DNA from: Psammoneis japonica
Lineage: Eukaryota
DNA length: 30,448 nt
NCBI GenBank assembly: GCA_008632985.1
Contig: QPGO01000234.1
Span: forward strand, 62,001-92,448
Direction of reading: 5' to 3'
Shown here piece after piece: positions 4,291 to 30,448 of the stretch. The number at the start of each line of letters is the position of its first letter. Position 1 is the stretch's first letter. A program made the position numbers and the translations under genes. The notes under the pieces were generated by a model, which worked only from the letters and a program-made list of their open reading frames with translations, had not been told where the DNA came from and ran no database searches.

Positions 4291-4324
4291 ACACAGCTTC
4301 AACACAAACACAGCTTCAACACAA
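4291..4324. repeat. Perfect 17-bp tandem duplication (acacagcttcaacacaa x2)
   Basis: Copies at 4291-4307 and 4308-4324. Confidence 0.9.
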
Positions 4325-7300
4325 ACTTAAACTGAAATCCCCAGGAGGCTGCACACATCAGCCACACCAGCAAGTCTGAAAAACAGCAAGGTCTCTTGCT
4401 TGCTGTGAGAGCACACAATGCTGGCAGACTCTGTTTTTGAGAAAGATTGATGGTTCCTGTCATTGTTTCATGCCAAATTGTGAGGTGAGGGCTGCTTTTT
4501 GGGGGGCTCAACATGGAGGGGGGCTCGCAGGAGGGTGTGAAGGAGCTCCCTAACCCTGAGACAAGCTGCCTTCTCTCTGACACTCTGAAGCTCTTCTTGT
4601 GTGGCAGGAGGGGCAGGAGCAAGTTGCTCCTCTCAAACAAAGGAAATGATGAGCATCTGATGTGCCACCAAGCCACAAATTCTACCAACCATGAGCAGCA
4701 GCAGAGAACAAAATTCCCCAGCAGCTTTTGCACCTCTTGGCAGCATGCAAAACCCTCAGCTGTGTTGAGGTGGCAAGAATGCATTTTCTCAAGACTGTTC
4801 TTTTGTACACCTGCCTGCATCAATTTGGAAATGTGCTCAGTTTGTGCTCTGGGCTGGTCAACCTGCTTTTTTTTTGCTGCCATTGCTGCAGCCAGTGCTG
4901 TTGTGCCACCAACGAGTGTTGCAGCTGGTGTCTTTTGCAGTGCTCTGCTCCAGAGAGTTGCTCATCTGGGAGAATTTTTTGTCTCTGAAAGCCTGCATCA
5001 GCCCACCATGACAACCACAGCTGATGCCAGCATCCCAGCTCTGAACCTGCCAGCTGGAGCAAATGGGTGGGGACAGCGAGCTCATGCTCAAGTCTCTGCA
5101 GCCCTGGTGCTCCCTGTGTCTTTTGCAAAAAGCCCAGGTGTGTCACCCTTGCTGTTCCCAGGGCTGGAGTCAATCAGCACTGGCAAAATTTTTTCCTCCC
5201 AATGACCCAAATGCTGCAGCATGAATGATGCTGGTGTGTTGTCCAAGGCAACAGCCCATCATTGCTGATGACATGCAGGAGAGTGCAGCGCAGCTCTCCA
5301 TCACAAATTTCTTCTTTGTTGTTTTACCCAAGCAAGAAGCTGTGACAAAAAGGGCTTGTTTTTTGCCTCTGCAGTCTTTCTTGCCACTTCCCTCACATTG
5401 TCATGAAGCATGTTTTGAGCACACAAAGCCATGGGTAGAAAGCTGCCAAGAACTTTGCCAACTTCCTGCTCAATCCTTGCACAGGGACCACACAATGTCC
5501 CCAGCAAGCTTCAACCATTTTCTCAACACACTGGTGTGATGGTTGATGTGTGTGCACAGTGCAACAATGCCAGCCATCATTGCAATCATGACCAACATGC
5601 CAACAGTGTAGCTTTGTGTGTGTGTTGCATCCTTGAAATTGTCCATTTCATGTGAGCACATGATGAGATGGTGTTGCAGCTGCTTGCCAAACTGATGACT
5701 TCAAATGAAGACATCATGATCTTGTGTTGGTGACAACTCACCCACTGTGGTGATGGCTGGCCATGGCCACCCAATGGAAGAAACAAAAGACAGTCTGGAT
5801 GCAAGCAGAAGATGACCTTCTCCTGGAGACTGCTTGCAAATGACAATGTGATCACAACACAGGAGTCAGCAAACTTGACTGGGGTGAAAATGCCCCTGCT
5901 GTTCAAGGCAAAGCCACCTGTGATTGTGCAGTGAGATTGAGAGAGATCCACACTGCAGGGAATTGTTTTGTTGCTGTTGATGAGGTTTGGCAGTTGCACT
6001 CCCCTTGACATGAACAACCCTGTGCTGCTTGCCGATCTTGACAATTGGGTTGCCTGCAAAGCAAAGATGTGTCATCAGAGTGCCCCAGATTTTTGATGCC
6101 ACCATCTCCAATGTGACCCTCCTCATGATCCCAGAGAACTTGTCAGCACAGCAAATGGCGCCCTTCTCAGCCATTCTGCTGCTGCCAACTCCATTGCAAC
6201 TGCAAATGACAGCTCAATCCCCATTGACAAATTTGGAGCTGCCACAAAGGCAGCAAGAGGATGCAACTGCTTGGAGTTCTTGTCCAGGCTGCACCACACA
6301 GGGACTTGACACATTGCATGTGGATGCAGAGCTTCTCACAAAGAGGCTGTGTTGGGGTGCACTGACTCAGAGCAAAAACTTCTAAAGAAACACCCTGGTC
6401 ACCAGAATTTGCTTTGCAGCATTGCATGCATGTCAAACCAAGGTCCCCTGTTTAAAAAGACCCTTGTGTTTCTGTCTTCCTGGTGCATGATCTCAAGGTG
6501 ACTGGAGATTAGACTGCACAAGGGCGCAATGCCACAAGAATTGTTTGCACATCAGCAGCTGTTTCCCAGCAAATTGGGGTGACCAATGTTGCACCAAAGG
6601 ATGCTGAGTTGGCAAGCACCTCCTCTGAAATTGATGCAGCGGTGGCAGGTCTGGCTCCAATGGTTGTGTTTGTGACTTGCTGGCACATTGTGTGCTTCAA
6701 AAAATGGAATTTCAAGTAAAATCAACATCAAACAAATGGCAACCAAGTGGCAATCCAGCAGCACTGGTGGTTTTGGTCTAAGAAAAAGACAGCAGTGCTG
6801 GTGCCTTTTTACTTTTTTCTTTGCCCCAGAAGCTGGTGTTTTCAGGATGTCTTTTGTGGGACATGGCACTTAAAACCAGGAACATGGGCACCCTTTCTTG
6901 CTTTCAAGCTTTCAAGTCATGTGACAATTGGTGTTGAAAGCAAGCTGGATTTTGAATGGCAGCTGGGAGTGGACCAGAGGAACTCAATGATTTGTCCAAC
7001 AAGCAAAAAACAAAACCCACAGGATTGTGTGGCACAGCAAGTTGCCAGAGAGAAAAGCTTTCAACACAACAATGTCTTGAATCATTTTGGATGCAAAAGA
7101 GCAGCAGTGTGACAGTTTGCTCCTTAAATTGGCTCCACAGGTTTCATTTGGCAGGCAGAAGTGCAAAACATTGATGTCCATTCACTCTGGTTGGTTTGGC
7201 AGAGCAGCTGCAACAATGGGGTGATGCCCACCTCAGTCATGACTGCATGTTGGAAGCTGCACATCACAATGCTGCCAATGAACAACATCTTGGTTGTGAC

Positions 7301-10300
7301 AAAGAAGGCAAGTTGCTGGTTGCATTGTTCACTCAGTGTCAGTTGTGCACTGAAAATTGCATGAGCCCACTCATCTCCACTTGTCATTTCTCTTTCTCAT
7401 GAGCAAATGATGACCACACAACAGATGTCAAAATCAAAAAGTGGCATTGTTGGGTTTGACTGGTGCCTGCACCTGCTTCTTGCTCATGTGGTTTGACAGC
7501 ACAGTTGGCAGCTGGTTTGTGTGGAAGGTGCAGCAGCACAAGCACCTGCAACCAAAGGTTGTCAAATCAGCACCACATGCAAGAATGACTTTTTCATGTT
7601 CTCTTAAAATCACTGCTGATGTGCAGCAAAGCCCTCCAGATCACACTCATTCTAAATCAGTTGTGCAAATCTGTCTCTGCAGAAATTCCTCCATTCTGAG
7701 TTGCACAATGTGCAACTTTCAGCAACACTCTCAATGCACATGAAGAAGGCTTGGCATGTGACTTCAGTGCAAAGCAAAGTCCGGTCTTGGTTGACTTCTT
7801 CCCACCCACTTCTCAATTTTCACTTTTCCTCTTTCACAACAAAAACCCAGCATCCCATCCATCCAACAAAACACAACGAAGTGAGGCCATGAGTTGAGTG
7901 TCCCATCCAACATGCTGTGCTGTCTGTTGCCACAAAAACAATCTTGAAACTGAGTGGTGGAGGTGAGTGCGTGGCAGTGCATGGCACAAAACTGGTGCAA
8001 ACTTGTGGCAGTTGATGCAACTCATTTTGAGCAAGGGACACATGACCTCAACAGACTTAAAAAACAGGAGTTGTGGGGAGCATGGCTCTGTGTTGTTGAA
8101 GCTGATGCACCGTGCTTGTGCTTCCACATTGTCACTTTTCACATTGTTTTGAAGATGCCACAAGGGACATCAGATGCCACCATGCAGCCCAACATGCCTT
8201 GCATCATCTGGTGCGGCATTGTCAGACTTGAAGCTGGGAGCCACAGCTCTTGAGTGTGGCTTTGCAAGGTGCAAAAATGAGCTGCACTTGCCCACCTGGT
8301 GCAAGCTGCCTCACAAAAGATCTCCAGATGACCAAACTCATGCAGAAGCAGTGCCAAGGAGCCAGCAGAAATGCCAAGAAAGTCCAGAACATCCAGAAAC
8401 TGCACAGAATTCAGTGCAGAATCAGTGCCAGGGATGTCAAATGATGATCATGAAATTTAGTGCTTTTTTTGGCATTTCTGCTGGTGCCCTGGCACAAATT
8501 TGTCACTCCGGAGTTCTTTTTTGCAGGGCAGCAAGCTCTGTTTTTCTTTCTTTCTTGTCATTCAAAAGGCAAGATGTGGGGTGCGCAAAGGTGCGTGCAC
8601 AATCCAATGTGCTGTGTTCCATTGGAGCTGATGATGTCTAACTGCCTTCTCAAAACAAGCAAAGATGGGCACACTGCAAACAGCAGAAAAGAGCCATCCT
8701 TGCCAAATTCCAATGACATGACCGCTTTTTAGCATTTTTGTCTTTTTCACTTTCTTGTCATTCAAAACAGATGCTGCATGCCTGCAAGCTCAATCAAAAA
8801 ATGCTTGAGCAATGGCTCTGTGTTTTGTGCTCATTCTGCCAACCTTGTGCTGTTTTTTTTGTGTGATTCAAGCAGGAGTCAAGAACTTTGATCTCACAAA
8901 TCATTTGAGGGCATTGGCGCCACTTTGATGCCATGGCTCAACTGACTCAGAAGGCTGCAATGGGACACCCAGAGGGCAAGCCAATGGATCTGTTGGTTGA
9001 GCCAATGAAAAAAAGAACAGCAAACAAAAGCTGTCAAAATGAGCAAATGGGAGAGCTGCAAAACAGTGGACAAAGTGGCTGTCTGGCCATTTGCTTTTGA
9101 AATGAAGTTGACAGCAGCAACAACAGTTGTTGAGAAGCTTGGCCAGTGGACTCCTTCAAATGGCCATGATTTGTCATGTCTTTCCTGCAGGATGACTTGC
9201 ATGGAACAGTCAGGTGATCTGGAAAATCAGCCTTGCATGAGAGCGCAAGCAGCTCACTTTTGTTGCATGGACACTCACAATTTTTTTGCTTGCAGGCCTT
9301 CTTCTGCCCTGGTCTGGCACACAGGGTTTTGCTGCATGGTGCTTCAGGCCCAAAACCAAGTCAGCCTTGCCTCCTCAAATGTTGATGACTTTGGTCAGGA
9401 GTTCACAAGAGCAAGAATGGAGAAAGAAGTAAAATGCAGGGTGGGGACAACAAGAACAGCACACAGCACAACATCACATGCCAACTCAAAGTGTTGCCAA
9501 AAGGCACTGCCACATGCCATGACACAAGTGGCATGCCAACCTGAAACAGACCAGAAGTTGTGTTTCACCCTCAACAGTGCTGTGGTTTGCAGCAGCCCAA
9601 GCATCATTTGATGTGATGCATGTTGGACCCATGGCAAACCTGGCTCAAAGTCTGAGGGACACAACAACAGTTCAAAGCTCAGCGGCACCACTGGAGATGT
9701 GAGCCACCCATGGAACAAATTGTCACAAGCTCTGGTTGTCCTCAAGAAGCCACGGCATTGTGAAAACTCACAACCCATTGAACAACATGTCTTCACAGAA
9801 GGCATTGTCAACTGCCATGAAATTTTCTTCCAAACGGTGGAGCATGGAAAAACAAGAGATGGCACTGCTCTCACAGCTCAATTGCTTCCACCTCTCCCAC
9901 CCTCTGTCCTTCCATCCAACTGTGGGGTTGGGAGAAGGCACCTGCAGCACTGGCAATCTGCTGCATGTAAAAAAAACAAATCCAGACATTGGGTGCTGTC
10001 ACTCCATTGCCAGCTGAGCTGACACTGGCTCACCCACACTCCCAAGGACACTTCTTCAATGCAGCAGGAGCTTGCAGGGGACTGGTGGCCAGAATGGGTG
10101 CCACCAGAAGGTGACACCCCACCAAGACAACTGAAAAGGAATGACTCACATGAGGGATTTGTTGCATGCTTGTTGATGACAGCCACAGAAGGCATGCCAC
10201 AACTGCAAAGGACAAATGCAGTCAGACAGGTTTTTAAAATGGTCCACAAAAGGAGCCTTGAAAGCAAGATGAGCAGGTCATTGGAGAAATCATTTGTTGC

Positions 10301-10301
10301 A

Positions 10302-10700
10302 CATGGAAACAGCACCAGGTCTTGCACAGAAAATCCAATGGGAGCAGCAAACAGATGACAGTCAAATGACATCACAAGATGACCTTGTGTTCTTTGCTGA
10401 AAAGGACAACAACAGAAGCAGCATGTTCACCCCAAAGAGCAAAGGACTTGATTGGATGGCAGAGAAAAGAAGTGGGGTTGAAGACAAACTGGCAAGGACA
10501 AAAGCACCAGTCTGGAGAAGTGACACATGGATTGTCAGTGGCAATGCATGGAAACAATGCCAGATCTTGCACAGAAATGCTGATGGGAGCAGCAAACAGA
10601 CAACAATCAAATGACACACTTTCACCCCAAAGAGCAAACGAAACAGCTGGCAAGGACAAAATCAGTCCGTTGAAGTGACACGCAGATTGTCAGCAGCATC
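10302..10700. repeat. Diverged tandem duplication (~10302-10546 and ~10547-10700, second copy with deletions)
   Basis: Shared blocks: catggaaaca..tcttgcacagaaa..atgggagcagcaaacaga..tcaaatgaca; ttcaccccaaagagcaaa; ctggcaaggacaaaa; gaagtgacac...gattgtcag..gca. Confidence 0.85.
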
Positions 10701-13163
10701 TGCGGATCCGTGCAGAATTTGTGCAACCTGTGTGGAAAATTTTCTGAGTCAGCAGAAAATTGCAAGAAATGAAAACCAGTGTGCAACCAAAAGGCCACAA
10801 CACCCATCATTTTCCACTGATGAACATTGCTCATCATGGTGCAACAAGGATGCACCACTGGCAAACATGGACAGAATGGGCTTTTTGGAGCCAAATTGAC
10901 ACCTTCTGAGAAGGGCAACATCAGTGCAAGAAGTTGTGTAGAAACCCACATAAAAGCTGGGGGCATGCAGCTGACATCAAAAAGCATCTGCTGCACGTCA
11001 GATTGCACCCAAGGATTGAGTGCAAAAGACAAAAGTGCTGGACTCATGTCATGCTCAACCATCTCAGATGGCACAGTGCAGTTGCTTGACATTCAAGAAA
11101 ACAGCTGTGCAGCATCTTCCCCCTCATTTTGTCTCTTCTAATTTGAGCAACAGTGCAATTGCAGTCATTGGCAATTGGTTCTAAACAAGAAACAGTGACA
11201 AACTTGTGACACCACAGAAAAGAGAACAGTGTGCTGGAGCAAGGCTGTGGCTGAGTTGTTGAAAGAGCCATGCATTGTGCACTTGCCTCAATTTGAACAT
11301 TCTGAACTTGAGCAAGTGAAGCTCACAACCCAGCATGTGAAGATGGTCATGCTGCTGAAACCAAAAAAATGTGCCATTGTTTTCATGGCACTCATGCTCC
11401 TGGCATCAAAGTGTCATTGATGGTTGAAAATCATGTTTGCAAGGTGGGGCAACCAAATTGGACTTTGTTGCTGGACCAGAGATTGTCCACAATTTTGAGG
11501 AAGTGCTGGTGCATTTGCAATGACAAAGCATGTCATCATGCTGTGAAAAATCTTTGCTGCCCCAAAAACACCCCCCTCGGTTCTGAAGTTCAGGCTCATG
11601 TGGGGCTGAGGAGAGACCTCTTGAGCCTTTCTTTGGGCCAGCTCACTCCCTGGCAACAGTCTGTGAGTCAACAAGGCCCAGAAGAAGATGGCAATGTTTC
11701 ATTGTTTTCTTTTTGATTGGCATGGGATGCACGCTTGAGCTGGATGTCTGACAGCTGTTGATGACATTGCGCAAAACATGAGAGCAACCTCACAACAAGA
11801 AATTGTTTGCATCAGATTGAAGTGAAAAAAAAAAGAGCAAGTCATCATCCAACAAGCAGTGCAAGGGCAGCCCTTCTTTTGAGAAGAAAATGAATTGAGA
11901 CAGAAGCAAATGCATTGATCTGGAAGCTGAGTGTCCCACCCATGCCAACCATGGTTGCGTGTGGAAAGAATTTGCAGTGTGGATCCAGTTGCGAGCACAA
12001 GCCACCATTGCCCCAAGCAAGACCTCTGGGCAATGGTGGTTGTGGTGACCAAAGAGGCCATGGCAGCTAACAAGGTCAAGAATGTGGCTGCATCCCCCAT
12101 TGAAGAAATGATGATGGCAGTGATGCCTGCCACTTGCAGTGCCAAAAACACTTGAAGACCTGGCAATCTGGCTGGATTGGCTCCTCCCAGTGATCAGAGC
12201 ACAGCTTTCCACCATTTTGATGACACAAGAGATGGGTGTGGATGTGATCAAGGTGGTTGTGGTCCTCACAGCAAACAGCTGCTTGCACAGGTTTGCACTC
12301 TTGAGTCTTTCCTTGGGATGCCTTCCCCCATCTTGAGGCGAGCATGCTGGCGACATGTCCTTCCAAATTGCAGCTGCAGCCTGTGATTTGATTCTGTGTG
12401 TTCTGCTCAAAAATGCAGGGCTGCTCCCTGCTGAGTTTGACAAATCTCTGAGCAAACTGAGATGGATCCATGGCACACTGGCAGAGCGTTTCATCATGCA
12501 TCATGCACGCAGCTGCTGCGATTTGACGTGTGTTGGCTCAAGAATTTCCTCTCGTGCAAGCTGGCATCAACTTGAACTTTTGACACAGCATGATGAAATG
12601 GCTCGACTTGAAAACAGTCATGAAACAATTTTGCCATTGGAAAAGAGACAGCAGAGTCAGCTGGATGTGTTGTGGACAACAGCACAAAAAGGGCAACGAA
12701 GAATGTGAAGAAGGACTTCAGCACAAGGGGAGAGAGCTGCACCTCGGATGCTGAGCATGGCAAGGTGTCTCCATCAGAAGCGCAGCAGCTTAGCATCATT
12801 TGTAAGAAGAACAAAAGGCAAAATTGCAAGCAGCATTGCCTCAACATTCTACTCCATTGTTTGATGGCAGCGCCTTGGCAAAACACTGGGCAAAAAGATT
12901 CCCAATTGCGCGCAGGCAGAGCTTGGCGTTTTAGCGCCCACTGTGCTTTCACACAAAATGCCATACTAAGTTATTACACACAACATGAATGAATATATTT
13001 AAACAAGGGCGATGATTGTCCGTTGTCCGCGCTCACATTTTGCAGTGCATGTTCTCAACGGACCCACCACCAAATAAAAAATACTCCTATGCATCGTCTC
13101 CAACACCCCTTGGTTCATTGAAAGGTATCTCTATCACTACAGCGCTCTTGAACCATTATTGTC

Positions 13164-17400: not shown

Positions 17401-17901
17401 TGTTGTTGGCAAATCACGAGATGCGTGGTCAGAAAACCTCACCATCACGGCAAGATTTAGCAGCTCGCAAGGATTGGACTTTGAACTTTGAAAGTTGCAT
17501 AGTTTGCTTCCCGGGACCTCCAGTAGCCCCCGGTGCTCGACGGTATGATCAAATTCGGAATACGGAGACTTGGTATGTTCCATGTCGTCTTTGCTGTCGT
17601 CAGTCAGATGGGGTTGTAAACCGAGCTTTTTCGGATTCGCTTTCCCAACTCGTGCCCCACTCGAAACAAGAACGCCACTTTCTTTTCGAGCATAGACATA
17701 CCATCCCCGTGTATCTTGAATGACTGTGTAGCCTTTCGGATCCTCCGTCCAACTGTAAAACTCATCCCCTAGCAGTTTGAGAGGAGGGGTTTCAGACCCG
17801 TCGGGCTGCTGATATTTTGAAGGTGTCGGATTTGCGGGGATGGCAAAGCAGCAAGCAGCCAAAGCCGCCGCAAGAAATAGCCACAACGTGATTTCTCTCA
17901 T
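14485..17901 (-). CDS. Secreted M6-family (immune inhibitor A-like) zinc metalloprotease with four C-terminal Cys-rich modules; 6 exons (17901-16881, 16789-16768, 16677-16610, 16524-15398, 15302-14964, 14862-14485; 984 aa)
   Basis: Signal peptide; pro-region QPDG..LLGDEFYSW; VVLHSGAGSE and IWSH motifs. Spliced IGVIAHECSHFLGLPDLYD (HExxHxxGxxD), FDMMG Met-turn, EYLLIE and GIAIWHIDE. All five GT-AG introns join in phase (2955 nt). Confidence 0.92.
14488..15832 (-). repeat. Four copies of a ~62-aa six-cysteine module separated by Pro/Thr linkers (15647-15832, 15159-15439, 14719-15005, 14488-14673)
   Basis: Consensus C[DN]N[SD]PxxLVxY[ST]GVGxxPxxIRLVPCxRIAxNxxKFCxLxExxTGxxxx[DE]VCxxxCxxxxGC. Copies 2 and 3 each carry a near-identical intron. 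Confidence 0.92.
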
Positions 17902-18399
17902 GGTTCTTGCAGTTGCACGAGAGAAAGTGTGGATGATTACAACTGAAAAAGTGCGTGCGGTCATTTTTTCAAAGAGTGTGCCTGTTCGGGGAAAATTTAG
18001 GAAATTTAGAAATTTGAAGTGTATTAGGCAGACATACTGAACAATATGTTTGAATCAATTTATGTATGTTATAAATTAAGATTATTTAAGAGCATGTTAT
18101 TTTCGTATCGTGTCCGTATGACCAAGACAAAGTGAAAAAAGTTTAGCATGGAAATTTTTGTTCCGACCTCCGTCCTATGATATTTTATGCTTTTACACAC
18201 GTCATTTCTACGAGGTTGTATATAATGTAATTATGAGCAGCAGTTTGAACGGACATTGGCATTCTTTGATATATAAACTTTTGAATAAAGATAGGGTAAT
18301 GTACCGGTGTTGAATGACCTAGGGAATGACCGCTTTCGTCGTGTTCCCCCCTCATTTTTTACGTCGTTCCGGCACCCAGCACCCGCCAATAATTTGAAG

Positions 18400-19390
18400 G
18401 GTCCAATCCAATCCAATGAGCAACCACAACGACAAGCTGTCCACAGAGGTCCAGGAGACATGCGTAACAAGGTCTTTGGTCATGGCACTTTATTCAGTGC
18501 TCTGAATGTGCAAAACCAAACACTGCGTCTGGCAACCAGCAGAGGTCCTTGAAACAATGTGCAAAAAACAACAACAGCCCAAAAATCATCTTGTTTGGGT
18601 TTGTGCACAGTGTGGCAATGCCTCAAGCACCAAATTAAGAGATGGGCATTGAGCAGTTGCAAAGATTGCTGCTGTCGCTGGCAGCTGCAAACAAACTGCT
18701 TCTGAGCTGGTGCGCACCACACACCACAATGGGGCATTTTGTTGCATCATGATGTGTGTGCACACTCAATTTTCTCACAGCATGCTCTCATCATTTCATG
18801 CCATTGTGGACACCCAGTGCTGCACACAAGACAAAATGTGCCGAGGAAGAAGTTTGAGAATCACCCAAGTGCTCAACAAGCTCTTTTCTTGCTCTTGCAG
18901 CACTTGGCTTCTTTGTGCTGGTGAGAGTTGTGATGCACTGTGTGTCTGTCATGTTCATGGCACCAGCGCACACAAGACATCATGTGCGCTGTGTTTTTGA
19001 CAAAATGAAATGTGGGCCTCAGGTGTGTTGCCCTGCTGCAGCCAGGGCTCAAGCCCAATCAGCAGCACGCTGAAACCAAACCACTGAGATTGTGCAGAGC
19101 TGTCAACTTCAATCTTTTTTTTCACAAGACACGCCAATTTTTTTGTCTCAGCACAGCCAATCATTTTGTCTGCTCTCTGCTGCCCACTGCAGCTTTCTCG
19201 AGAGAGGCCAAGCTTTCATCATCTTTCATTTTTCCCTGTCAAAACCTGTGTGATTTTTTGCTTGAGGAAAGAACTTATAGAGACTCTCTCTGCTGTAGAG
19301 GGTGTGGCAGCTGGGCTAGTTGACCTTGTTGTGGAGAGAGAGCATGGACGAGGTTGGATGCTGATTGAGCAGCCAAGCAGCAGTCGCACG
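18400..19390. mobile_element. Small TpA/CpG-depleted decayed repeat island
   Basis: Same CA/TG-rich, TA-poor signature as 4.2-12.9 kb, lying between two divergent genes. No termini or domain recognised; boundaries approximate. Confidence 0.6.
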
Positions 19391-19518
19391 GTTCGGCCAT
19401 GCGCGCACATGATGGAAAACGCGCGGATTCTGGTTCAAGCTGATGTCATCAAAGCGTACGATTCTACATACGTAATAGTCTCGTAGGAACCGTACTAAGA
19501 GAGAAAAATAGCCTGAAA

Positions 19519-21247
19519 ATGGCGGGAAGCGTCTTGACAGAACACACCAACACACCAACAAAAGCACAACACCTCGAGACGGTCGAGAAGTTGGGAAAGA
19601 TGGCGGCCCTCAATCGCCCTACCGAGGCGACGTATGTTGTCCATGAAAATGTCACGGCTGATACAGCAGGTAAAGTGGCCTTTGAATTGATGATCGAGTG
19701 TCAGTAGTTGAAAACCAGCTTTTGTATTGTTGAGGCGATCTTTTGATGACTGCCTTTTTTCCTGCGTCAGAACCTCGTACTGTTCTACCGAGAATTCTCC
19801 GCGGAAGAATTAGCGGCGTTGATTTTGATGTGCAGACTTACCCCGTTTTGTGTTTTCTTGATGCTTTCCTTACTTTGTAGACCATGAGGATCACACATTC
19901 TGGTAAGTTTCGTGAAATGTGACTCCCACGACACGTGCTCGCAAAAGGAAAATCTAACAAGTTACTGCTTTTGTGTTCTTTTTCAGTGGCATTATGTTTC
20001 CTGTCAAGTGCAAGGAGCTTCTACCTCTGGATCATGTTGTGATTCATAGCATAGCTGTACGGGGTCGTTTAGGTCCATTGACCGTGTGGGTCTCCAACGA
20101 AGACCAGCCAGCTTTCGGCAACAACAACAACGACGGCCGGGTGCGGGTTCCTCTCTCCCCACGATTCTGGACAAAGGTTTACGAGAAGACCCATAAGCCC
20201 TCGGTGCGCACATTCAAAGAATTAGATCTTCGAAGCAATCCCGTTGTTCTCCGACCTGGACAAATGCGTGTCATTTACATTCACTCTACTCTGGAAGGAG
20301 ACGAGGCGATTGTGTATGATAATCGTCGTTCCGATCGTACCTACAATGATTCGCTCCTCTCCATATTGCCCGGACGCGCCCATGTTTCGGAAACGGTCTT
20401 TGGAACGCAGCCCATTTGGGGCTGGGGAAACGCGTGGAGAGACAATCGCGAGTTTGTCGGACGCATTGAATTCGGGGCCGTGTACAAGCTCTGGAATCCA
20501 GTCACGGCCAATCGATTTGGGAGCAAGTTCCAAAGTTTGGTGCGAACCCTGTTTCTTTGTCAGCGTCGCTGGGAAAGTCCCTGGAGCAAGTTGCCAGATG
20601 ATTGCATCTTTTACATTATCAACATGTTACGGTGGGACTGGGCCGACGATACTCCGCAAGACATGCGGGAGCTCCGAAACAGGAGAAAGCTGCGGCTGCG
20701 TGAGGAAGCGGAGGAGGCCGAACGCATGGCTGCTGTCCAAGAAAGTGAGCAGAATGCACAAGAATCTGCCCCACCCGTGGCCTCAATGCCCACCGATGCT
20801 GTGGGGGAAGAGTCCCAGGCCGGTTGCTGCTCCAAAGCCTGCCGTCAGTCCAAAGAGGATGATAACGACAGTGACTACATCGATGCTGACGACGATCAGG
20901 ATGATGATGACGGAGATGAGGACTACGTTGATTCAGAAGCCGGCGAAGAAGACCATGATGCAGAAATGCAAGAAGCCCTAGTTGTCGAGTACGAAGAGCT
21001 TGCCGACGAAGATGAGGGAGACGACGATGACAGTGAATGGGACGAAGACCCCGATTACAACGCACGCGTCGACATGTTTGTCTGCAGAGACGATAGTTCG
21101 GACGAGGAGGATGCCGCCGACGACGATGCAGCTCACGAGCAGACAAGAAGAGAGTGGATGCGCCGTCAGTTTGCGAGGATTCATGTCTTGAGGGCCTTGG
21201 CTGCCTTGGATGACGGTAATGCCGTTGTAGATATGGATTTTTCCTAG
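19519..21247 (+). CDS. Hypothetical protein with long acidic C-terminal tail, 3 exons (19519-19669, 19881-19902, 19987-21247; ~477 aa; alternative start at 19600)
   Basis: Introns GTAAAG..TAG and GTAAGT..CAG join in phase to give ..ENVTADTADHEDHTFCGIMFPVKCK... Long open exon 3 with a globular domain followed by a D/E-rich tail. Confidence 0.8.
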
Positions 21248-21400
21248 AGCTTGGGCGACGACAAGTTTTTACATGATTTGATTGTCCATTAGAGATGAAA
21301 ATTTAAATAGTAGTACATGTTGTATACACTACACGCTTTTCTTGCCAATCAGCATTACTAATAAAAGTATGAGGTTGTTGGTTCTTGTCTGCTTTACCAG

Positions 21401-22780
21401 CTACCTCATCCATCTGCGATTCCGGCGCCGATTGTACCTTGACGTTCTTGCGTTTCCTTTAAACATGCTTGCGCTGTGTCCTCCTCGAGCGCCTTTTACG
21501 CCGTCCACGAAAAAGTGAGCATCCTGGAAAACATCTTCATCCTCGTAATGTACGCAATCAAGATCCGGCTGAGCCGTATTTTCTTGAACAGTTTGGAGAT
21601 GCCGTGAAGAAAAACGGGAGTCTTGGGGAGTTTGGGGACTCACTGACGGTGAAGAACTGCCTCGCTTCCTGAGCACCTCTGCGTACGATTCAGACAAGGT
21701 CTCAGAGGTGAAAGTAACGACAGACGAAGTCTCCGACATTAATTCCCAGTCACTCTCGTCAACGTCTAAAATACTGTCGCCACAGACGGTGTAGCTCAAC
21801 TCGCTGGCTTCATCGACATGATCGATCCTTTCGAACTCAAGTTCAATTACTTGCTCTGATGTGGACTCATCCGATTCAAGCCCTTCGTCTTCTACTTCTT
21901 CCTCTCCACCAATACTCTCATCCTCGTCAAGACTACATTCGTCACTGAAATAGTCTTCAATGTAGCTGACTTCAGGAAAGGGGTTAAAATCATCGGATGT
22001 GTTGAGCATTGGTAGACTTTTCTTCTTCTTTGTCCTCTTTGTTGTCATCACATTGGCGTTGGTTGAATGTTGCGCTTGACGAAAAAGGAAAGCGTTGACT
22101 TCCTTGACAGCCAAAGCAAGGCGCTTGGATGTAGGAGAGACAGCCACAAAAGATGCCATGCTAAAAATTTCTTCCATGGTATGCTCTTTCTTGCAAACAA
22201 CATCTTTCACTTGTCGATTCAAGGAATTGCTGACACACCACCTAAGGTCTGCTGGACCAAAGTATGGGTTGTTTCCAAGGAGCTTGAGCCACATTTGAAA
22301 GGAGTATCTTGCGTCTTTTCCAAAGCTGCGACGTTTCTTGATCAGCACAACGAGATACGAGAGAAAGGTCTTTACTAGCAAGCAATGCCCTGCATGAGCC
22401 GCATAATAGAACGCGGAGCGATCCTTCATATCCGGTGTAAAGAGAATCTGAACCAAAATGCTGAATTTTTCCTGGAAGGAGGTATACGGTGCAAAACTGC
22501 AACTCATCATGTAGGCACGTTCGATCGCCAAACCCAACTGTCCTTGTTTCGCGGCGGTTGTGAGTTGGACCATACCTGGATGGGAGCGAGCTTGCTGAGA
22601 AAAGAACGATTTATATTCCTCCCTCAAACTTGCGCGTTTGAGTCTCTTTTCGGTTTTGGTCAATTTCTTAGGCGGCTTGTTGTTTGTTGAGGGCGCGTGA
22701 TCAACATGTCGCTGCGGAGGTTGTTTGTAAACGACTCCGTCCCTTGAATACCCAACCACGGACTGGGGTTGTTTCACCAT
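21401..22780 (-). CDS. Hypothetical protein with one ankyrin-like repeat and an acidic low-complexity region, 459 aa
   Basis: Long ATG-started ORF with normal composition. PDMKDRSAFYYAAHAGHCLLVKTFL resembles an ankyrin repeat. Confidence 0.78.
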   Translation of the reverse strand: MVKQPQSVVGYSRDGVVYKQPPQRHVDHAPSTNNKPPKKLTKTEKRLKRASLREEYKSFFSQQARSHPGMVQLTTAAKQGQLGLAIERAYMMSCSFAPYTSFQEKFSILVQILFTPDMKDRSAFYYAAHAGHCLLVKTFLSYLVVLIKKRRSFGKDARYSFQMWLKLLGNNPYFGPADLRWCVSNSLNRQVKDVVCKKEHTMEEIFSMASFVAVSPTSKRLALAVKEVNAFLFRQAQHSTNANVMTTKRTKKKKSLPMLNTSDDFNPFPEVSYIEDYFSDECSLDEDESIGGEEEVEDEGLESDESTSEQVIELEFERIDHVDEASELSYTVCGDSILDVDESDWELMSETSSVVTFTSETLSESYAEVLRKRGSSSPSVSPQTPQDSRFSSRHLQTVQENTAQPDLDCVHYEDEDVFQDAHFFVDGVKGARGGHSASMFKGNARTSRYNRRRNRRWMR

Positions 22781-23561
22781 GGTGACTTAATCTTACTCGC
22801 TCGAGCCTTTTTCTCGTACTCGTCTGAAAAATAATGTGAGATGGATATCAGATATAAAATAGCAGACACACCGCGCGCGGTTTGAGTCATGCATCGGTTT
22901 TCATCGCGGCGCGTCACGACTGAGTCTCTGTTTTATTGTTTTGTTTTCGATTGTGTTCCAACATTGATTTAGCTTGCTCTCTTTTGCAGTAACGACATTT
23001 ACTGGTTGGTTGTTAGCATCTCAGCTCAGACGCGGTTTGGAATGACAACACACCGCGTTTCGATCGCAAAAGAAGTTCAAAGTTCAAAGTTCTCAGACGT
23101 GCGTCCGTCATACGTACGTAGCATGTGTCGTTTTGGCGCGTACCGGTACAGTAGGTCGCGCGACACCGGTTAACTTGCGGTTACAGGAATAACCACCGCT
23201 GATTGGGGGGCGCGCTTCCCCCTGACGTCACGGGTTAACCGCGCTAACCGGGGGGAGTCCTCAGTGGTTCCTGCCCGTAGGAGGCCGGCGCCGGAACCAC
23301 CCCCGGAACCGGTTCCCGGACCCCGGACAGGCCTGTGGTTGGTGAAGATAAGAACCTTCAGAACGCGACAAGACACAAAATCTGCTTGTCGAAATGTTGT
23401 TTCTCCCCACTCGTGTGTCAACACAATTTGAAACGACTCCACTTGTCGACCACCCCAAGTGAGCATTTGATTTCAAAAACCTCTTTTCTTTTGATGGTGA
23501 GGTGGGTGCAACCCAAAAGACGATCCCTCGAGGCCATCATGATGAGAAGAAGAGACCCAAG

Positions 23562-25159
23562 ATGGCATCTCAGGTCTCCACAGGAGACTTGTTGGCCCAA
23601 ACCATCGCACCACCCAAGGTGGATGGCACTTGTGTCACTGAGTGGAATGCATGCAAAAGGTGGGTGGACGAATCGCCGGCTCTGTCAGGGCCGCCTCACT
23701 TGACGCAAGACCAGGTCGACCGGCACTTCTTGGAGGTGGTGTTGAAACGAGACGTCACGCCAAAGTTGGCCAAGCGTGTCATTTGGTCACTGCAGCATTG
23801 TTCATCTTGGGAGGAGCACAAACCTCCCAATCCAAAATTCGTTGTGAGATCAGAGGCAGTTGACGTCACTCTGGTGGCACACAAGGAGCAATGCACCCAA
23901 AATTTGCTCACTGCGTTTGTGTCAGCTCATGACAAGCTGCCTGTGGATGCTCTGTCTTGTGTTGCTGAGGACAAGACATTGAGTTGTGTTGTTCAATCTG
24001 CTGCTTGGAAGAACTTGGCAGTGTCATGGACCAGCTGCAGCCAGACCATGATGCGAGGCGATCAGCTCTGACTTGCACGGCATGCGGACATTCACCATGA
24101 CGAAACTCACGGCCCCGGCAACCCAAACGAATTGGTCGCACGTCCAATGACAGCTCTGATTGAGCAACGGTTTGCAGGCAAACAAGGTTCCCACAAAAAG
24201 AGAGCAGCAGGCATGTGGCGGCACCGCGACTGGAAGCAATGCGGAACTGGCATGAACGCTGCCGTCGCCGCCTGCAGGTTTCATGGCGATGCGGAAATCC
24301 ACTTCGCACATCAACATGATGGATTCTCGGACTGGTGCAAGCATGAACAAGTGGGTTGGAAAACATCAGACACGCACCGCAAGGCATGCCAACGGGTGCA
24401 CAGGGCAACAAAGACGTTGTGGGCAAAGTGTGCTCACCTTGCACCGCCGGCATCGATTCCAGCAACATGGGCGGGGCGACCAAGCAAAACATTGAGCAGC
24501 AGACGAAACATGGAAAAGATTCACTTGACGTCTCATGCTCACCTGAGATCCCTCCACAAGTGCAGTTGATTGCCGCCAGGTTCTCCAAGCTGCATGGGGA
24601 GAAAGTTTGCTGCATCCCTCGCACCAACATGTCCTTCGGCGAACCAGTTCCCGGAAAACCAAATGTTGCTGACACTGAGTTGGCAGAGATGACATGGCCA
24701 AGACTGCCTGCATGGAAACAACAACACAATGTTGGTCATAAGTGGCCATGCGGTGCAAACTTTTTATGTGGGACCTTGCCTTTTTTTGCTCGCGTCCTGT
24801 GCCAAGACGGTGTCCACTGGGTCACGGAGTGTCCGCAGCACGAAGCATCCCATCTGTTGGTTCATGTTTTTGGTGGCAGATGCATTGAGTGGGCCAGGGA
24901 CAGGCTTCAAGAGATGGCTGGCATGGATGCTGCGGATGAAGATGCGATTCAAAATCTGAACATTGCTGCCCAGTCAGCATTCTCTTCGGTTCGTACCAAC
25001 ACACAGGTTCTGGTTGGGAAAATGGATCGCCTGTCAGCAGAAGTTCAAAATTTCACCAACATTGTTCTGAGGCAAAACCAGCAGCAATGACAGCAGCAAC
25101 GTGAGCAACAGGAGCAGATGCAGAGTGTCAGAATGGCTGTGAGCAGTCAGAATGCGATT
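23562..25159 (+). pseudogene. Crypton/Ndc10-type tyrosine recombinase pseudogene, N-terminal and catalytic part
   Basis: Motifs QTMMRGDQL*L (catalytic R; TGA 24069 probably from CGA), GMWRHRDWKQCGTG, KCAHL/(R)TAG (1-nt frameshift near 24441), TKH...LDVSC (expected catalytic Y read as TGC at 24536), and FFARVLCQDGVHWVTECPQH. Family assigned from recalled motifs, not from a search. Confidence 0.8.
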
Positions 25160-25274
25160 TAGACACGTGCCGCACTGGATTTGAATCTGTGGGCACAACA
25201 TCGTACGAGCGATGGTGGTGTTCGCACAACACAAATTTGTGTGCATCATGATCACAGAGCGCAAATCATAAATT

Positions 25275-26055
25275 TCAGAAAAATTCAGAAAGAACCAACA
25301 CCACACAACGCCGCTCTAGCAGCCAATGGCAAACACATCGACGACGTTGTCTGGAACTGCCGACGACTGTTTCAGGAGAGCAACTTGTCGATGTCCACAT
25401 GAGTGAAACTGGGAATGCTCTCACCCTTTTTCTTGGCATTTGGATCGGGCGTTTCACCTCAGACATGGACAGGTTCTGATCCATGTGCTTCGCACCGAGA
25501 TGCCAAGCTAGAGCCGACCAGCCCATTTGATCCAGCATCACTTTTGACCTCGGGTGCAGTTGCAAAAGCAGTTTGACCACTTTGTTGGATGCTCCACAAG
25601 TGGCTGTGCATTGCAGTGGGAGTGCTCCATGCATCGCATCATGCAAAATCACGGCACGGGGTGGAACTTGTTGAGGAATGTCTGGAAAAGGCATTTCAGG
25701 AAGTGAGAATTCAGATGCAATAAACCCTGGGGATGGGTGGACACCAGAATGTCAAAAATCTGATCAACTTCCTTGCCGGGTGGCCTCCGACATGCCCAGT
25801 GAAGAGGCAGACGTCCTTTGGAATCCGCCGCAACACAAGCAGCCTCTGGACCCAAATGACAAAGAGCTGCAATGACCAAATGTGGTGCAGAGAGGACAGC
25901 AATTCGGTGCAGCAAGTGGTTTCAACAATGTGCTGAAGGAGTCCACCCAGTGCTGCCTTTTGAAGGAGTGCATGGAACTTAGAAAGGTCGATTTGCCTCT
26001 GATGAGTTCTAGAGAAACATGAGCCTGCAGTTGTCCAGGACAATGTCTTCTTCAA
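25275..26055 (-). pseudogene. Ankyrin-repeat protein pseudogene (diatom-type 'G.LPLH.AC' repeats)
   Basis: Frameshifted pieces LGPEAACVAADSKGRLPLHWACRR, ILVSTHPQG and HDAMHGALPLQCTATCGASNKVVKLLLQLHPRSKVMLDQMGWSAL. Confidence 0.75.
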
Positions 26056-26126
26056 TTTGCTCCTGTGGCTAAATTATTTTTGACATGTGCTCAATTGTGG
26101 TGTCATCAACAAGTGTGCAAAATTAA

Positions 26127-26632
26127 GGATGGATCTACGTGCTGCGGTCTAATTTAAAATGGCTCGCATTTCCCGCACTTCACCGTGTTGTTTGGACCTG
26201 CCTCGGAACACCCCCGAACACTCATGCATTCGTCAAACCCTCATGCCGGCGGGGGCTGTTAGACGGCTATAAGAGCTGCACATTCAGTGCTTCAAATGCC
26301 ACTTGTCGACCCATGCCCTCTTGTCAGGTCGAAAAAACCGCCAATTTTCGCTAAAATCGGGCTTCTTGTGGGAGATTGGTGGTGACTTTCCGGGAAATGC
26401 AGACAAGTGGCATTTGACTGGCTGTGGACTTATCTGCAGTCGTTGTGGTAAAAGTCGTGCATGGTCACACCTGTCGTTCAAGCATTCCAGGGTGTCTGGC
26501 GAACGGACAAAGTTCGACCGATCGCTGAAATTTTTTTTTGCGAACGCGCGCGCATTCACTACGATGCATCCGGGTCATTTTTATAAAAATTATGAGCTCC
26601 CAAAAAACAGACCGCAGCACGTAGATCCATCC
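26127..26632. mobile_element. 506-bp non-autonomous DNA transposon (MITE) with 24-bp perfect TIRs and TTAA target-site duplication; Kolobok-like
   Basis: ttaa-GGATGGATCTACGTGCTGCGGTCT (26127-26150) ... AGACCGCAGCACGTAGATCCATCC (26609-26632)-ttaa. A TTAA TSD with RR..YY termini fits Kolobok rather than piggyBac (CC..GG). Confidence 0.9.
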
Positions 26633-26636
26633 TTAA

Positions 26637-27957
26637 GAGGGCGGTCCAGAGATCGCCTGGCACACTTTTTACACAGAAACTGCCAGAGAGCCAATCACGT
26701 GCATTCCTGCACAGACGCAGCACAAAACAGAAAGCATGGCACTCCATCACGCGACCTCACGACGACACCACCTGACGACAACGCATCAAAATGGCGTCGT
26801 CCGCATCTTTCTGCAGCTCCTCTTTCACTTGCCCGATTGCTCCAAAAGGGCCAGGGGAAGCTGACAAGCTTTCTCTTGCAACACAGCAATGCAAACAAAA
26901 GTTGTTTTTTGTTCCAAAATCTCAGAATGCAGTGCAACCGATTGTCAAGGCGAACTCGCACGTTGGTGGCAACAACACCAGTCAATGTTCACTCTAGAAC
27001 AACAATGGAGACGTGATGCCCCAACAAAATAAAGTCCATGCCCCCATGACAAATTTTAAAGCTAGTTCTTCTTGTTGGCATGCAATCTTTAGCTGCTTTT
27101 TAGACTTGACAAAATGATCATCTGCCCCGGCTGTCACCCTCTGAGTTTGTTGCATTGGCCAACAAATTGGGCAAGCAAGCCACACATTTCTAGCTTGCAA
27201 ACTGCCTTGCAGCCAAAAGAAGCAATCTAAACCTTCAGAACAGCCATGATGCACTGGTCTGCCGAATCAAACTCCGCATCACCAAGTGGAGGCGGGGAGA
27301 ACCATTGTCAAAAATGCACTGTGACGGATCTGAGCTCTTGAGAGCTTGTCCAGCTTTTGACACCATGGCCCCAAATCACCACATTTGTCATGAAGTCAGC
27401 CTGATGCTGTGTCTGTGACTTTGCCTTGTTTTGGAAATGCCGCGGCCATCACATTGCAGAATTGACATTCTTGACAAGGAAAAGTGTTTCTGGGACACCT
27501 TGCGATGACGGAGACCCTGCAGAACAAAAGAACAATGTAGAAAGAGACAACACATGTAAGTCAAACGGGTGTCAATGTATGAAGCCTCAACAAAACACAC
27601 AGCATGAATGGTGGTGCACAAGGTTGGTCGTGATGCAACAGAAGCGACGCTGTCAACGCGAACCTTCAGTGAGAATTTTCACCATCAGCCACCCATGTGA
27701 ACCTGTGTGCTCTCGAGCTTGTCACATGCCTTGTGCTGTGACGCAAGACATTCCGTTGAGAGTACACTACAAAGCACCTCAGAAACAACCGCATTTTTGA
27801 AATCGGCGAAATGCCATTGTCCGTGTCATTTTGCGTCGCGAGCCAGAAAACACTCCCAAAAACTGTTCTGCAGGGCAAAATGCACTGAATCTACACAGAT
27901 TTGGGTTGTGCCAGGCCACGTAGAAAATGAACGGGCCGAGAACTGTGGTGCGCCCAC
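26637..27957. mobile_element. 1.32-kb TTAA-flanked element with imperfect TIRs, decayed
   Basis: Left end GAGGGCGGTCCAGAGATC versus reverse-complemented right end GTGGGCGCACCACAGTTC (13/18). Both ends carry subterminal GCCTGGCACA. TTAA at 26633-26636 and 27958-27961. Confidence 0.65.
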
Positions 27958-28199
27958 TTAATTTAGCCACTGACATGCAGTTTTCAAGAACTGGGCCGCA
28001 TCTGCTCTTTGCCATCGTCGTTTTGTCGGGTGTCTCGTGTTTCAGCGCGTGCGGAAGTGGGCCAAAACAATCAGTCGAACTAGTCAAGTGTCTTGCGAAC
28101 ACCAAATTTATCAATTCTTTCAAATCTGCACAAAATTGATTGCGGAATGGTTTCTGCGGGATGTTGTGCCCATGGAATCCAACTCGCGCGCGCATCGTT

Positions 28200-28613
28200 C
28201 AGCATCTGCCTCCGCCGCCGTCAGGTGCTGCTCAACCACACTTTCCAAAAGAAATGCCAAAGACAATGACCAAAATGTTGGAGGAGCACCTGGAGTTTCA
28301 GTTGGAACAGTGCAAAGGAGTGAGCAAAAAGAATTGGCAGGGTGGGGTCACCATGCAGCTCAGTCGTCGTTCTCACCTGTGTGGCTTAATTCTGAAACGG
28401 TCTGAGCGAGTGCGTGGTTTTTCAGACCGTGCCGCTGTGCTCCAGGAATCTGCAAGGCTGATTGATGAGGAGAGAGATGCCATGTCACTCAGACAATTGC
28501 ATGACATTTCCAAGGCTCAACCCAGTGATGCCAAGTGCCGCAAGGTCGACCGCTCCCAAGGACCGAAGAAAAGATCGCGTCGCACCCAACCTCTCCCATC
28601 GGAAGATGTGTGA
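28200..28613 (+). pseudogene. C-terminal (GCR1_C-like DNA-binding) part of the Crypton recombinase
   Basis: PHFPKEMPKTMTKMLEEHLEFQLEQCKGVSKKNW..LSRRSHLCGLILKR..ARLIDEERDAMSLRQLH follows the GCR1_C-like pattern and is in frame with the 25157 junction. Confidence 0.68.
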
Positions 28614-28699
28614 GGTTGAAGGAGGTCGAGCGTTTTTTGTGTTTTTGTAACTCTGTGGCCCCTGCATTTTTTGTTTTCAATTTTTCCAATCCTCCTGTG

Positions 28700-30448
28700 T
28701 AGACCCCCAGTGAAAAGTGTGCCAGAAGAAAGGCCAAAAGCCGGTCAAGCCGCTGCTTTTGTTGTCTCACAACATTTGACGTCGCGTCATCGGATCACTT
28801 GGGTGTCAGGGGTCACGTGAAACAATCGGACATTTGTTGATCGTGAATGAAAAGTCCTCAACAAATGTTCTTTTGTCGTCTCTGATTGATTGATGTCCGG
28901 CTTTTAAGCAAAAAGAGCCCACGCAGGCTTTGGCACTGCTGTGCGCGGCAACCGGCACTCACCGAGGCCCCAACCCCCAGGCTCCGGAGAGCCTGGTCTA
29001 CATGAGATCAAGAGCACAGGATGGTGGCGAGAGCGACCCGCCGCATGCCTGCATGAATGGGTGCTGCAACTGTGCTTCTATTTGTCGCGCGTGTCGAGTC
29101 ACGTCGGCCTTCAGATGCGCTTTCAATTTTAAGGGCGGTCATCCCCGCGTTTGTCCCAGAGAATTGCCGTGGCATTTGAGTGAGGACATTTGCAGTGTTT
29201 GTTTTTGAATGCAAAAATTGCAGCATTTGCATTCACCCCCGATCGCGCATGAAAACGAGAACACTCAGGCACCGTGATCGAAGCACGACGATGACGGCAA
29301 TGTCGGCATGGCTCCAAAACGCAGTGGTCCGTCCACAAACATTTGATGTGCATGTGACCTTTGATGCACAACGAACATAAAATGGGTGAGAGTTGGCAGA
29401 CGGACCACCTCCGCCACTGACTTGCACTGCATTGTGGCTTGATGTTTTCACCACGGTGAAGCACGGTGGTGTGAAGTTCAAGAAAAATCACGCAAATCAC
29501 GAGCTGTTCAGTTGAACTCAAGCTAAAAAAGCAGCAAATGACCCCCCTTGATTCAGCTCCTGAAAAGTCGTCAGCTTTGATCACTCTCTCGTGTGACATT
29601 GTGCGCACATTTCCACACGATCATTTTGTGTTTTTCCTTGTGCAAAATGTCAGTTGTGGCTGATGCAACATTTTCGAATGATTCCCATCATGACAAAAAC
29701 AGCAGCTCCATTGTCAGTGCACACAACAATGGCCCTTGCTTGCTCCTCTCATGTCTCTTTCCTGCTGCTGTTGTCCCATTCACACTGCATGGACTTGCTC
29801 CCTCCTCAGAAGCTCGTCAGGAGGTGCGCACAATGGCTCTTCAACTTTCCACAAAAATCTGAGTTCTTGAACTTTTGCAAAGATTGACAGACTGCAGCTC
29901 ATGCAGCAGAGAAGCTTGCATGCTCATCGGTCATGCTGACTCAGCCAGGTTGATGCCAAAGATGCATGGCATGAACCCTGCACCATGCATCTCTGAGACA
30001 TGTCACCTTTTGTTCCAAAAAAAAGTGACGAGCAATGTGCTCTTCCCTCACCATCATCACAGTGTTGTCACACTGAAAAGAAGAAATGCAAGACATTGTG
30101 GTTTGGTTCCAAAGCTCACATCTTGCCTCTCTCATCCTCCCTGGATTGGTTGCCAGCAAAAAAGTCTGCACTTGCAAGCTGCAGGCTCTCTCCAATGCTG
30201 AAATCCCACCTGCAGATGACCCGCCGTGCCTGTCAATGAATCCTTTGCCAGTCTCCTGAGCTGCTTTAAGAAAGTCAATCTCCTTGAAGGCATCTCAGGA
30301 GGCAAGGTGACTGGCTTTGATGGGATGGGCTTTGGAGACCAGAGCTCAATCTTTGTGTTGTCTCCTTTGACCACCAACATTCAAACTTCTTCCTTTCTTG
30401 ATGCATTTCAGCCCTGGGCAGGAGCTTGCAGCACTGACATGAGACACA
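28700..30448. mobile_element. Continuation of TpA-depleted decayed repeat DNA, unidentified, running off the window
   Basis: TpA is nearly absent. CpG is retained to ~29.5 kb and becomes sparse afterwards. Confidence 0.55.

Follow-up and report, generated by a model that had tools for sequence, protein, structure and literature searches.

Searches of the literature with terms relating to TpA and to processes resembling repeat-induced point mutation (RIP) retrieved only systems that convert C to T, until a single preprint was found which describes A:T to G:C hypermutation confined to TpA dinucleotides in integrated viral and transposable element (TE)-like DNA of the chlorarachniophyte Bigelowiella natans (Mettrop et al., bioRxiv 10.64898/2026.01.13.699255, 2026). 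The present analysis concerns a stretch of 30,448 nucleotides (nt) of contig QPGO01000234.1, hereafter the window, in which 1388 nt within a relic of a putative Crypton DNA transposon are entirely devoid of TpA. A previous sequence-only reading of this DNA had attributed the deficit to conversion of TpA to CpA and TpG by a repeat-targeted mutator, and had stated that no characterised system of this kind was known to it. The latter statement is overtaken by the preprint, in which the signature is already documented with mutation-accumulation data. The kind of process is thus already in print, in this single preprint and, judged by analogy, the process in the window is of the same kind as the TpA-only hypermutation of B. 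natans.

In mutation-accumulation lines of B. natans, 231 of 302 nuclear point mutations were located in two integrated viral regions. These comprised A>G or T>C changes in 230 of the 231 cases, and the GC-biased mutations were all situated on TpA which was altered to TpG or CpA. The rate in the viral regions was ~1000 times the background, in some lines only, and the large region is single-copy (Mettrop et al., 2026). The preprint also reports 324 TpA-depleted coding sequences that are enriched for DDE and reverse-transcriptase domains, as well as 124 clusters of 1-kb windows that are short of TpA and have raised CpA+TpG. An ADAT2-like adenine deaminase is proposed. The hypermutable regions display no C>T excess, and the Discussion likens the process to RIP and cites the preference of ADAR for a 5' U. 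The terms CpG, Crypton and tyrosine appear nowhere in the preprint text as available (Mettrop et al., 2026).

The locus studied here resembles the B. natans system in its target (TpA only), in its products (TpG and CpA) on both strands, and in the arrangement of affected blocks beside normally evolving genes. The low rho TpA and high rho CpA+TpG (rho being the standard observed/expected ratio) are also the same, and both systems include single-copy sequences and TE-type proteins among their targets. The two differ in extent, as the mutating viral insert of B. natans keeps 3.3% TpA whereas the sequence here has reached saturation (no TA left in 1.39 kb; a rho of 0.05 across 8.5 kb), as well as in the target, a Crypton DNA transposon, and in the co-depletion of CpG, which is full in two blocks. 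Moreover, the B. natans process is documented by mutation-accumulation data whereas that at this locus is known from sequence alone (compare Mettrop et al., 2026).

Loss of TpA in the Crypton relic and in other blocks of the window

23351..24738, no strand: TpA-free stretch; 0 TA, 62 CG, CA+TG rho 1.66
4330..12790: block B, 8.46 kb; TA 28 (rho 0.05), CG 44 (rho 0.09), CA+TG rho 1.86
18637..19275: small purged block between two divergent genes, 639 nt; TA 0 (rho 0.00), CG 8 (rho 0.22), CA+TG rho 1.93
23351..30448: block D, continuing past the end of the window, 7.1 kb; TA 59 (rho 0.13), CG 288 (rho 0.65), CA+TG rho 1.58
Intervening genic DNA: TA rho 0.54-0.63, CG rho 0.81-1.05, CA+TG rho 1.06-1.21

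The absence of TpA between positions 23351 and 24738 that had been noted previously was verified by a recount: the 1388 nt include 0 TA compared to 76.7 predicted by base composition, and to 58.8 expected at the 4.24% TA of the normal DNA in the window (Poisson P(0) = 2.8e-26). The bounding TAs are at 23349 and 24739, and the 1390-nt gap between them is the longest without TA in the window. The sole dinucleotides in excess are CA (153; observed/expected (o/e) 1.57) and TG (134; o/e 1.77), and the ratio (CpA+TpG)/(ApC+GpT) is 287/176 = 1.63. The ~60 CpG previously said to remain correspond to 62 in the recount but, with an o/e of 0.65 against ~1.0 in adjoining DNA, CpG is not untouched. By the measures of Mettrop et al. 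(2026) the stretch has rho TpA 0.00 and rho CpA+TpG 1.66. With cluster thresholds taken from the Methods of the preprint, nine consecutive windows (4001-13000) qualified and form one cluster, and within block D the windows at 24001-26000, 27001-28000, and 29001-30000 also qualified.

The stretch is real, but a map constructed from sliding windows and block-wise dinucleotide counts revealed that it is part of one of several purged blocks (4330-12790, 18637-19275, and 23351-30448), which are sharply edged and adjoin normal genes. The abundance of TpA in neighboring genes that had been remarked upon is borne out by the genic values listed above. Block B occupies the gap from a COPI_assoc gene (3388-3996, minus strand) to an open reading frame (ORF) that starts at 13164 (plus strand). 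Other than the COPI_assoc gene at its edge, no Pfam family was detected in six frames of this block (3400-12701 scanned), and self-comparison of the window disclosed no repeats common to the purged blocks. The intergenic region that holds the TA-free block at 18637-19275 also includes a TA-rich segment at 18001-18500 (38 TA in 500 nt).

In all blocks the pyrimidine-purine steps (TA+CG+CA+TG) add up to 230-252 per kb, although TA and CG are nearly gone from the purged ones. Thus, the missing TA and CG are accounted for by additional CA and TG, as would result from transitions. In contrast, A or T outside TpA was spared: rho for AA+TT is 1.20-1.25 in purged blocks versus 1.13-1.18 in normal DNA, AT is likewise unchanged, and AG+CT shows no gain (0.88-1.13 versus 0.93-1.06). 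The GpC rho is raised to 1.36 in block B and to 1.62 in 18637-19275 compared to about 1.0 elsewhere, as is expected if GTA and TAC became GCA and TGC. Runs of CA or TG outcomes are not in excess and the outcomes are intermixed (z +0.85 to +1.31 in the purged blocks), which indicates that both strands were hit site by site instead of one strand being swept. The earlier proposal of a mutator that hits both strands agrees with this absence of strand runs. The change is specific for the dinucleotide, acts on both strands, and is targeted block-wise. Biased gene conversion toward GC was considered and rejected, as block B and its flanks are alike in GC content (0.475 in the block) and A/T outside TpA was not affected.

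The same counts bear on error-prone repair. In this scheme, T:G mismatches produced in silenced DNA by deamination of 5-methylcytosine (5mC) would recruit non-canonical mismatch repair with A to G changes of the Pol-eta type at WA, which is the hotspot of Pol eta. CpG decay and TpA loss do coincide in the same blocks. However, the Pol-eta candidate of the sequence-only reading, WA to WG, predicts loss of AA/TT and gain of AG/CT, whereas rho for AA+TT is if anything higher in purged than in normal DNA and AG+CT is not raised. Furthermore, CpG has been reduced by only ~one third where all TpA is gone, and the hypermutation in the preprint is all on TpA without accompanying C>T (Mettrop et al., 2026). 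Error-prone repair is accordingly considered very unlikely.

The assertion that neither RIP nor 5mC decay can produce TpA loss was sustained. CpG decay driven by 5mC explains loss of CpG to TpG/CpA in the same blocks (rho 0.09, 0.22, and 0.65), but is unable to remove TpA, the loss of which is complete here at ~one-third CpG loss. Fungal RIP, like the process in the window, is restricted to mobile or foreign DNA, in which it makes context-specific transitions to saturation and inactivates the element. However, RIP acts mainly at CpA, where it changes C to T and thereby creates TpA, whereas here TpA was destroyed and CpA/TpG created: TpA/ApT in 23351-24738 is 0/69, and CpA and TpG are in excess instead of depleted. 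In addition, RIP needs duplication, whereas single-copy blocks were purged and a 0.4-kb duplicate was spared in the window, as detailed below.

Identity of the Crypton relic and direction of the change

23463..24569, plus strand: Crypton-type tyrosine-recombinase frame, N-terminal part and core; in-frame TGA at 24069-24071; no Tyr codon left
24347..25090, plus strand: same recombinase continued in another frame; holds the column that is Tyr in 44/44 relatives and Cys here

The peptides on which the sequence-only reading had relied were located in these two frames. When the read-through of 23463-24569 served as query in an exhaustive HMMER search, 152 homologues were recovered at E<=1e-3, including 72 at <=1e-10, and the full-length relatives are ~700 amino acids (aa). 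The NDC10_II family was matched at E<=0.01 in nine of the 12 relatives scanned, eight of them at or above the curated Pfam cut-off, and Phage_int_SAM_4 was matched weakly in two of the 12. As the middle portion of Cbf2/Ndc10 is similar to the CryptonF recombinase (Kojima and Jurka, 2011; PMC3212892), the NDC10_II matches among the relatives support the designation Crypton-type tyrosine recombinase. The previous assignment to a Crypton gene is upheld by the homologues, by NDC10_II in the relatives, and by this likeness. The window's own Crypton frames and six-frame read-throughs of 23000-30448 matched no Pfam family, the read-through produced no match in a word-indexed protein search, and a sequence search of the PDB with the recombinase alignment also gave none.

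The catalytic tetrad of Crypton recombinases is R-H-R-Y (PMC3212892). This tetrad is not intact in the window copy, in which the column that is Tyr in all 44 relatives reads Cys. The in-frame TGA at 24069-24071 occupies a column that is mostly Arg in the relatives and corresponds to a change of the CGA to TGA type. Other copies possess one extra C after 24440, and so the window copy has a 1-nt deletion which accounts for the change of frame; the break falls inside a conserved H-x-x-R stretch of the relatives. The TGA, the deletion, and the loss of every Tyr mark the copy as dead, and the comparisons support the interpretation that 23351-24738 encodes a dead Crypton-type tyrosine recombinase. 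The element is like described Cryptons (PMC3212892) in the homologous ~700-aa recombinase of its relatives, in the NDC10_II and SAM-like matches, and in its multi-copy state. It differs in being a relic with a TGA, a 1-nt deletion, and replacement of all Tyr.

To assess the fate of Tyr residues, both frames of the window copy were aligned with those 44 relatives that are at least 560 aa long; of the 150 matches listed, the remaining 106 were excluded as fragments. A single transition in a TAY codon can replace Tyr by only two residues, Cys (TGY) and His (CAY). At the nine majority-Tyr columns the window copy reads Cys (six) or His (three) and keeps Tyr at none; the column that is invariant in the relatives (44/44) is among those with Cys. 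The previous observation that His or Cys stands where Tyr is expected therefore holds at every majority-Tyr column. Other majority residues were mostly retained (W 9/11, G 10/14, F 7/11, H 7/11). Among 17 Arg columns, seven were retained and products of the CpG type were Gln (two), stop (two), and Cys (one).

Other copies of the repeat were compared using contigs from sequencing runs X1-X3, which derive from one sample of one study and were placed at 80% likeness on 10449-30448. The comparison is a sample, with 40 of 1257 differing sites listed, 20 of them in 23351-30448. Every contig placed has TA where the window has TG/CA at 23496, 23535, 23541, and 25609 (4/20 listed sites), and every contig placed has CG where the window has CA/TG at 23383, 23687, 23868, 23890, 24578, and 26967 (6/20). 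Compared with its family, the window copy has therefore lost TA as well as some CG. Over all placed contigs, there are 897 transition places versus 332 transversion places. As read from the alignments of proteins and copies, the direction of the change was from TA to CA/TG. The conversion advanced in the sequence-only reading is thereby corroborated, both by the nine Tyr columns and by the four sites at which other copies retain TA. The comparison of copies that it had suggested as a check is favorable at these sites, but covers only the 40 sites seen.

These data also address the possibility that the composition was inherited, the family having always been TA-poor owing to selection against UpA in RNA or to descent from a TA-poor donor. 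Moderate under-representation of TpA is common, and rho is 0.54-0.63 in the normal DNA of the window itself. Nevertheless, replacement of nine out of nine conserved Tyr, including the 44/44 residue, by Cys or His destroys the recombinase and so is not selected composition. Moreover, copies in the same sample have TA where the window has TG/CA, and a related locus from a metagenome (L001) is of ordinary composition (TA rho 0.64, CG rho 0.78). Inherited composition is extremely unlikely as the explanation. L001 was the one locus found in a metagenome scan with an alignment, and no second purged copy was detected in that scan.

Among the 150 library matches the median Tyr content is 3.3%, but three fragments (P0096, P0115, and P0135) have no Tyr. 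The closest relative of the window recombinase is P0001 (170 aa, from a 3160-nt contig; 59% identity), which has one Tyr and many Cys/His, includes Cys at a position that is His in the window copy, and matched only itself in the word-indexed protein search. P0001 is probably another hypermutated copy that was called as a gene. The residues at Tyr columns are C, F, C, H, and N in P0135 and H in P0096. At two Tyr columns, library fragments show the opposite outcome to the window copy (His versus Cys, and Cys versus His), as is expected from independent hits on one TAY codon. This pattern points to the Tyr-free database fragments reflecting independent events.

Copy number, read support, and the proposed mechanism

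The depth of X1 is 51-62 over unique DNA and mostly 1200-5400 in bins of 23122-29791, values that are summed contig depth and not copy number. The high summed depth nevertheless shows that block D is multi-copy repeat DNA. In contrast, 11116-12449, inside block B, and 18637-19275 are purged yet have single-copy X1 depth. Conversely, a tandem duplicate of ~409 nt with 86% identity (14719-15126 and 15159-15560; genic, minus strand) has normal CG and 13-16 TA per copy. Thus, repetition is not required, and purging is independent of copy number. The repeat-targeting put forward in the sequence-only reading is therefore not supported: single-copy blocks were purged, the 0.4-kb duplicate with 86% identity was spared, and the viral insert in the preprint is single-copy as well (Mettrop et al., 2026). 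Targeting of foreign or mobile DNA fits the Crypton relic and the multi-copy block D; the blocks at 4330-12790 and 18637-19275 are without known protein and partly single-copy.

The sequence that adjoins the TpA-free stretch on the left (23100-23350) is GC-rich and CpG-rich, with repeated GGTTAAC- and CCGGAACC-like motifs. The unique X1 contig stops at 23212, and so the repeat begins at about this position; its first ~140 nt keep 4 TA.

Confirmation in reads had been another proposed check and was achieved in part. An X1 contig of 3935 nt matches 10909-14843 with two differences and spans ~1.9 kb of the TA- and CG-free block B, so the sequence of that part of the block is confirmed in reads, whereas the exact letters of the Crypton copy are absent from the contigs at the listed sites. 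The latter result, together with the derivation from one sample of all runs that contain the sequence, might be taken to indicate an assembly or base-calling artefact, such as systematic long-read miscalls at modified bases. However, in addition to the 3935-nt contig, 65% of sampled 31-mers of 21000-30448 are present in X1, real mutation fits both the protein pattern, in which Tyr is replaced by Cys/His only, and the independent fragments without Tyr in a public protein library, and the calls that yielded this signature in the preprint came from Illumina data (Mettrop et al., 2026). An artefact is, on balance, highly improbable.

The window copy is therefore best regarded, and quite probably so, as a dead Crypton copy mutated to saturation by a locally targeted, TpA-specific transition process of the B. 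natans kind. In this mechanism every TpA would be altered to TpG or CpA, that is, A to G on either strand. TAY codons for Tyr would become Cys (TGY) or His (CAY) codons, and TAA and TAG stops would be impossible. The same process would have purged nearby intergenic and mobile DNA in sharp-edged blocks and spared adjacent genes. The chemistry may be deamination of adenine to hypoxanthine in 5'-TA-3' by a TadA/ADAT2-like enzyme that would be guided to foreign or silenced chromatin. The TadA/ADAT-like deaminase favored in the sequence-only reading coincides with the candidate proposed in the preprint (Mettrop et al., 2026), and is inferred here. Loss of CpG would be a second, slower process, namely deamination of 5mC in silenced DNA. 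A second process is the simplest account of the CpG loss, as this has gone ~one third of the way in the Crypton, against a total loss of TpA, and the mutating regions in the preprint lack a C>T excess (Mettrop et al., 2026). Overall the interpretation offered in the sequence-only reading is partly supported, and its core inference is right.

Alternatively, a single machinery, either a dual A/C DNA deaminase or one chromatin state, may drive both TpA and CpG to CpA/TpG. The near-total loss of both dinucleotides from the 8.5-kb and 0.64-kb blocks would then be explained, and the Tyr-free Crypton fragments hint at many independent copies, possibly in more than one organism; the proposal is plausible but on the whole unlikely. 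Coupled loss of the two dinucleotides in 4330-12790 and 18637-19275 could also be linked by a 5-methylpyrimidine logic if thymine, and not adenine, were the base modified. A dioxygenase of the TET/JBP type might generate 5-hydroxymethyluracil or 5-formyluracil at TpA of targeted chromatin, which would pair with G and so produce T to C changes, TA becoming CA and, from the other strand, TG. 5-Formyluracil is mutagenic, and thymine hydroxylation prefers TpA in some protists. The symmetric outcome is indistinguishable on sequence from that of adenine deamination. However, the Crypton, in which loss of TpA is complete, has kept part of its CpG, so the losses are not tightly coupled, and the preprint, in its available text, discusses deaminases only (Mettrop et al., 2026). 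Thymine oxidation is accordingly judged improbable.

Restriction by deaminases, APOBEC on DNA and ADAR on double-stranded RNA (dsRNA), likewise edits against viruses and repeats, and the preference of ADAR for a 5' U recalls the context observed here. However, APOBEC produces C to T or G to A changes, and the context requirement of ADAR, which works on RNA, is looser; the substrate here must be chromosomal DNA (a DNA transposon and single-copy intergenic sequence). ADAR-type A to I editing of dsRNA could reach the chromosome if it were followed by reverse transcription and reintegration. U/T upstream of the edited A is the known preference, cited in the preprint (Mettrop et al., 2026), and related copies appear to be transcribed, as RNA-like X2 contigs lie on 23962-24341 and 28175-28553. 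In contrast, Cryptons are DNA transposons without reverse transcriptase (PMC3212892), single-copy intergenic blocks were purged in place with sharp edges, and the TA specificity is absolute with AA, CA, and GA untouched. Moreover, mutations in the preprint arose in situ in single-copy DNA of clonal lines (Mettrop et al., 2026). A route through edited RNA thus has very little probability.

Several points weigh against the preferred interpretation of TpA-specific hypermutation of the B. natans kind. The deaminase step is inferred, as no enzyme, base modification, or mutation rate is observable in the window. The CpG loss is not explained by the process in the preprint, whose hypermutable regions lack a C>T excess (Mettrop et al., 2026). 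At the listed sites in 23351-24738 the contigs show the majority letters of the family and not those of the window copy. Read-level confirmation of the Crypton copy is incomplete (word share 0.65 over 21000-30448), with bridging by a single contig only in block B, and the copy-to-copy spectrum is only a sample, 40 of 1257 differing sites. Finally, blocks 4330-12790 and 18637-19275 have no recognizable mobile-element protein, which leaves their foreign nature unproven.

The window adds to the preprint a saturated end state without TpA, Tyr codons, or TAA/TAG stops, a Crypton DNA transposon as a target, and the finding that copy number is not the trigger. It also adds the co-loss of CpG in some blocks, with a tie to methylation and silencing or to a deaminase of dual specificity. 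The Tyr to Cys/His test is simple, works on an alignment, and can reveal the process in any genome. If the interpretation is true, this would be the first chromosomal genome defence that operates via A to G instead of C to T, and if the species of the window differs from that in the preprint, the taxonomic range of the system widens.

Neighboring genes and transcripts

13164-14189, 15350-16609, 16816-17964, 19973-21247, and 21401-22780: long ORFs of 341-459 aa, with no convincing Pfam family

The first of these ORFs (13164-14189) has a weak match to Sulfotransfer_4. The ORF at 21401-22780 matched nothing in the word-indexed protein search, and neither it nor the ORF at 15350-16609 has relatives in viral contigs, so a viral origin of the neighbors is not supported. 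The five ORFs are either lineage-specific genes or of foreign origin.

At 19640-21251 (plus strand) a contig from run X2, which is labelled 'DNA?', omits 19902-19985 (84 nt, GT..AG; depth 181), whereas an X1 contig enters the omitted part. Run X2 therefore behaves as RNA, and the ORF at 19958-21244 belongs to an expressed, spliced gene, of which it forms exon 2. None of the runs that contain the sequence is listed as RNA. Further X2 contigs map to 23962-24341, with 33 differences over 380 nt, and to 25573-26020. Another, at 28175-28553 (minus strand; 19 differences), omits 28287-28373 (87 nt, CT..AC, equivalent to GT..AG on the minus strand), which indicates that a related copy of the TpA-poor repeat is transcribed and spliced.

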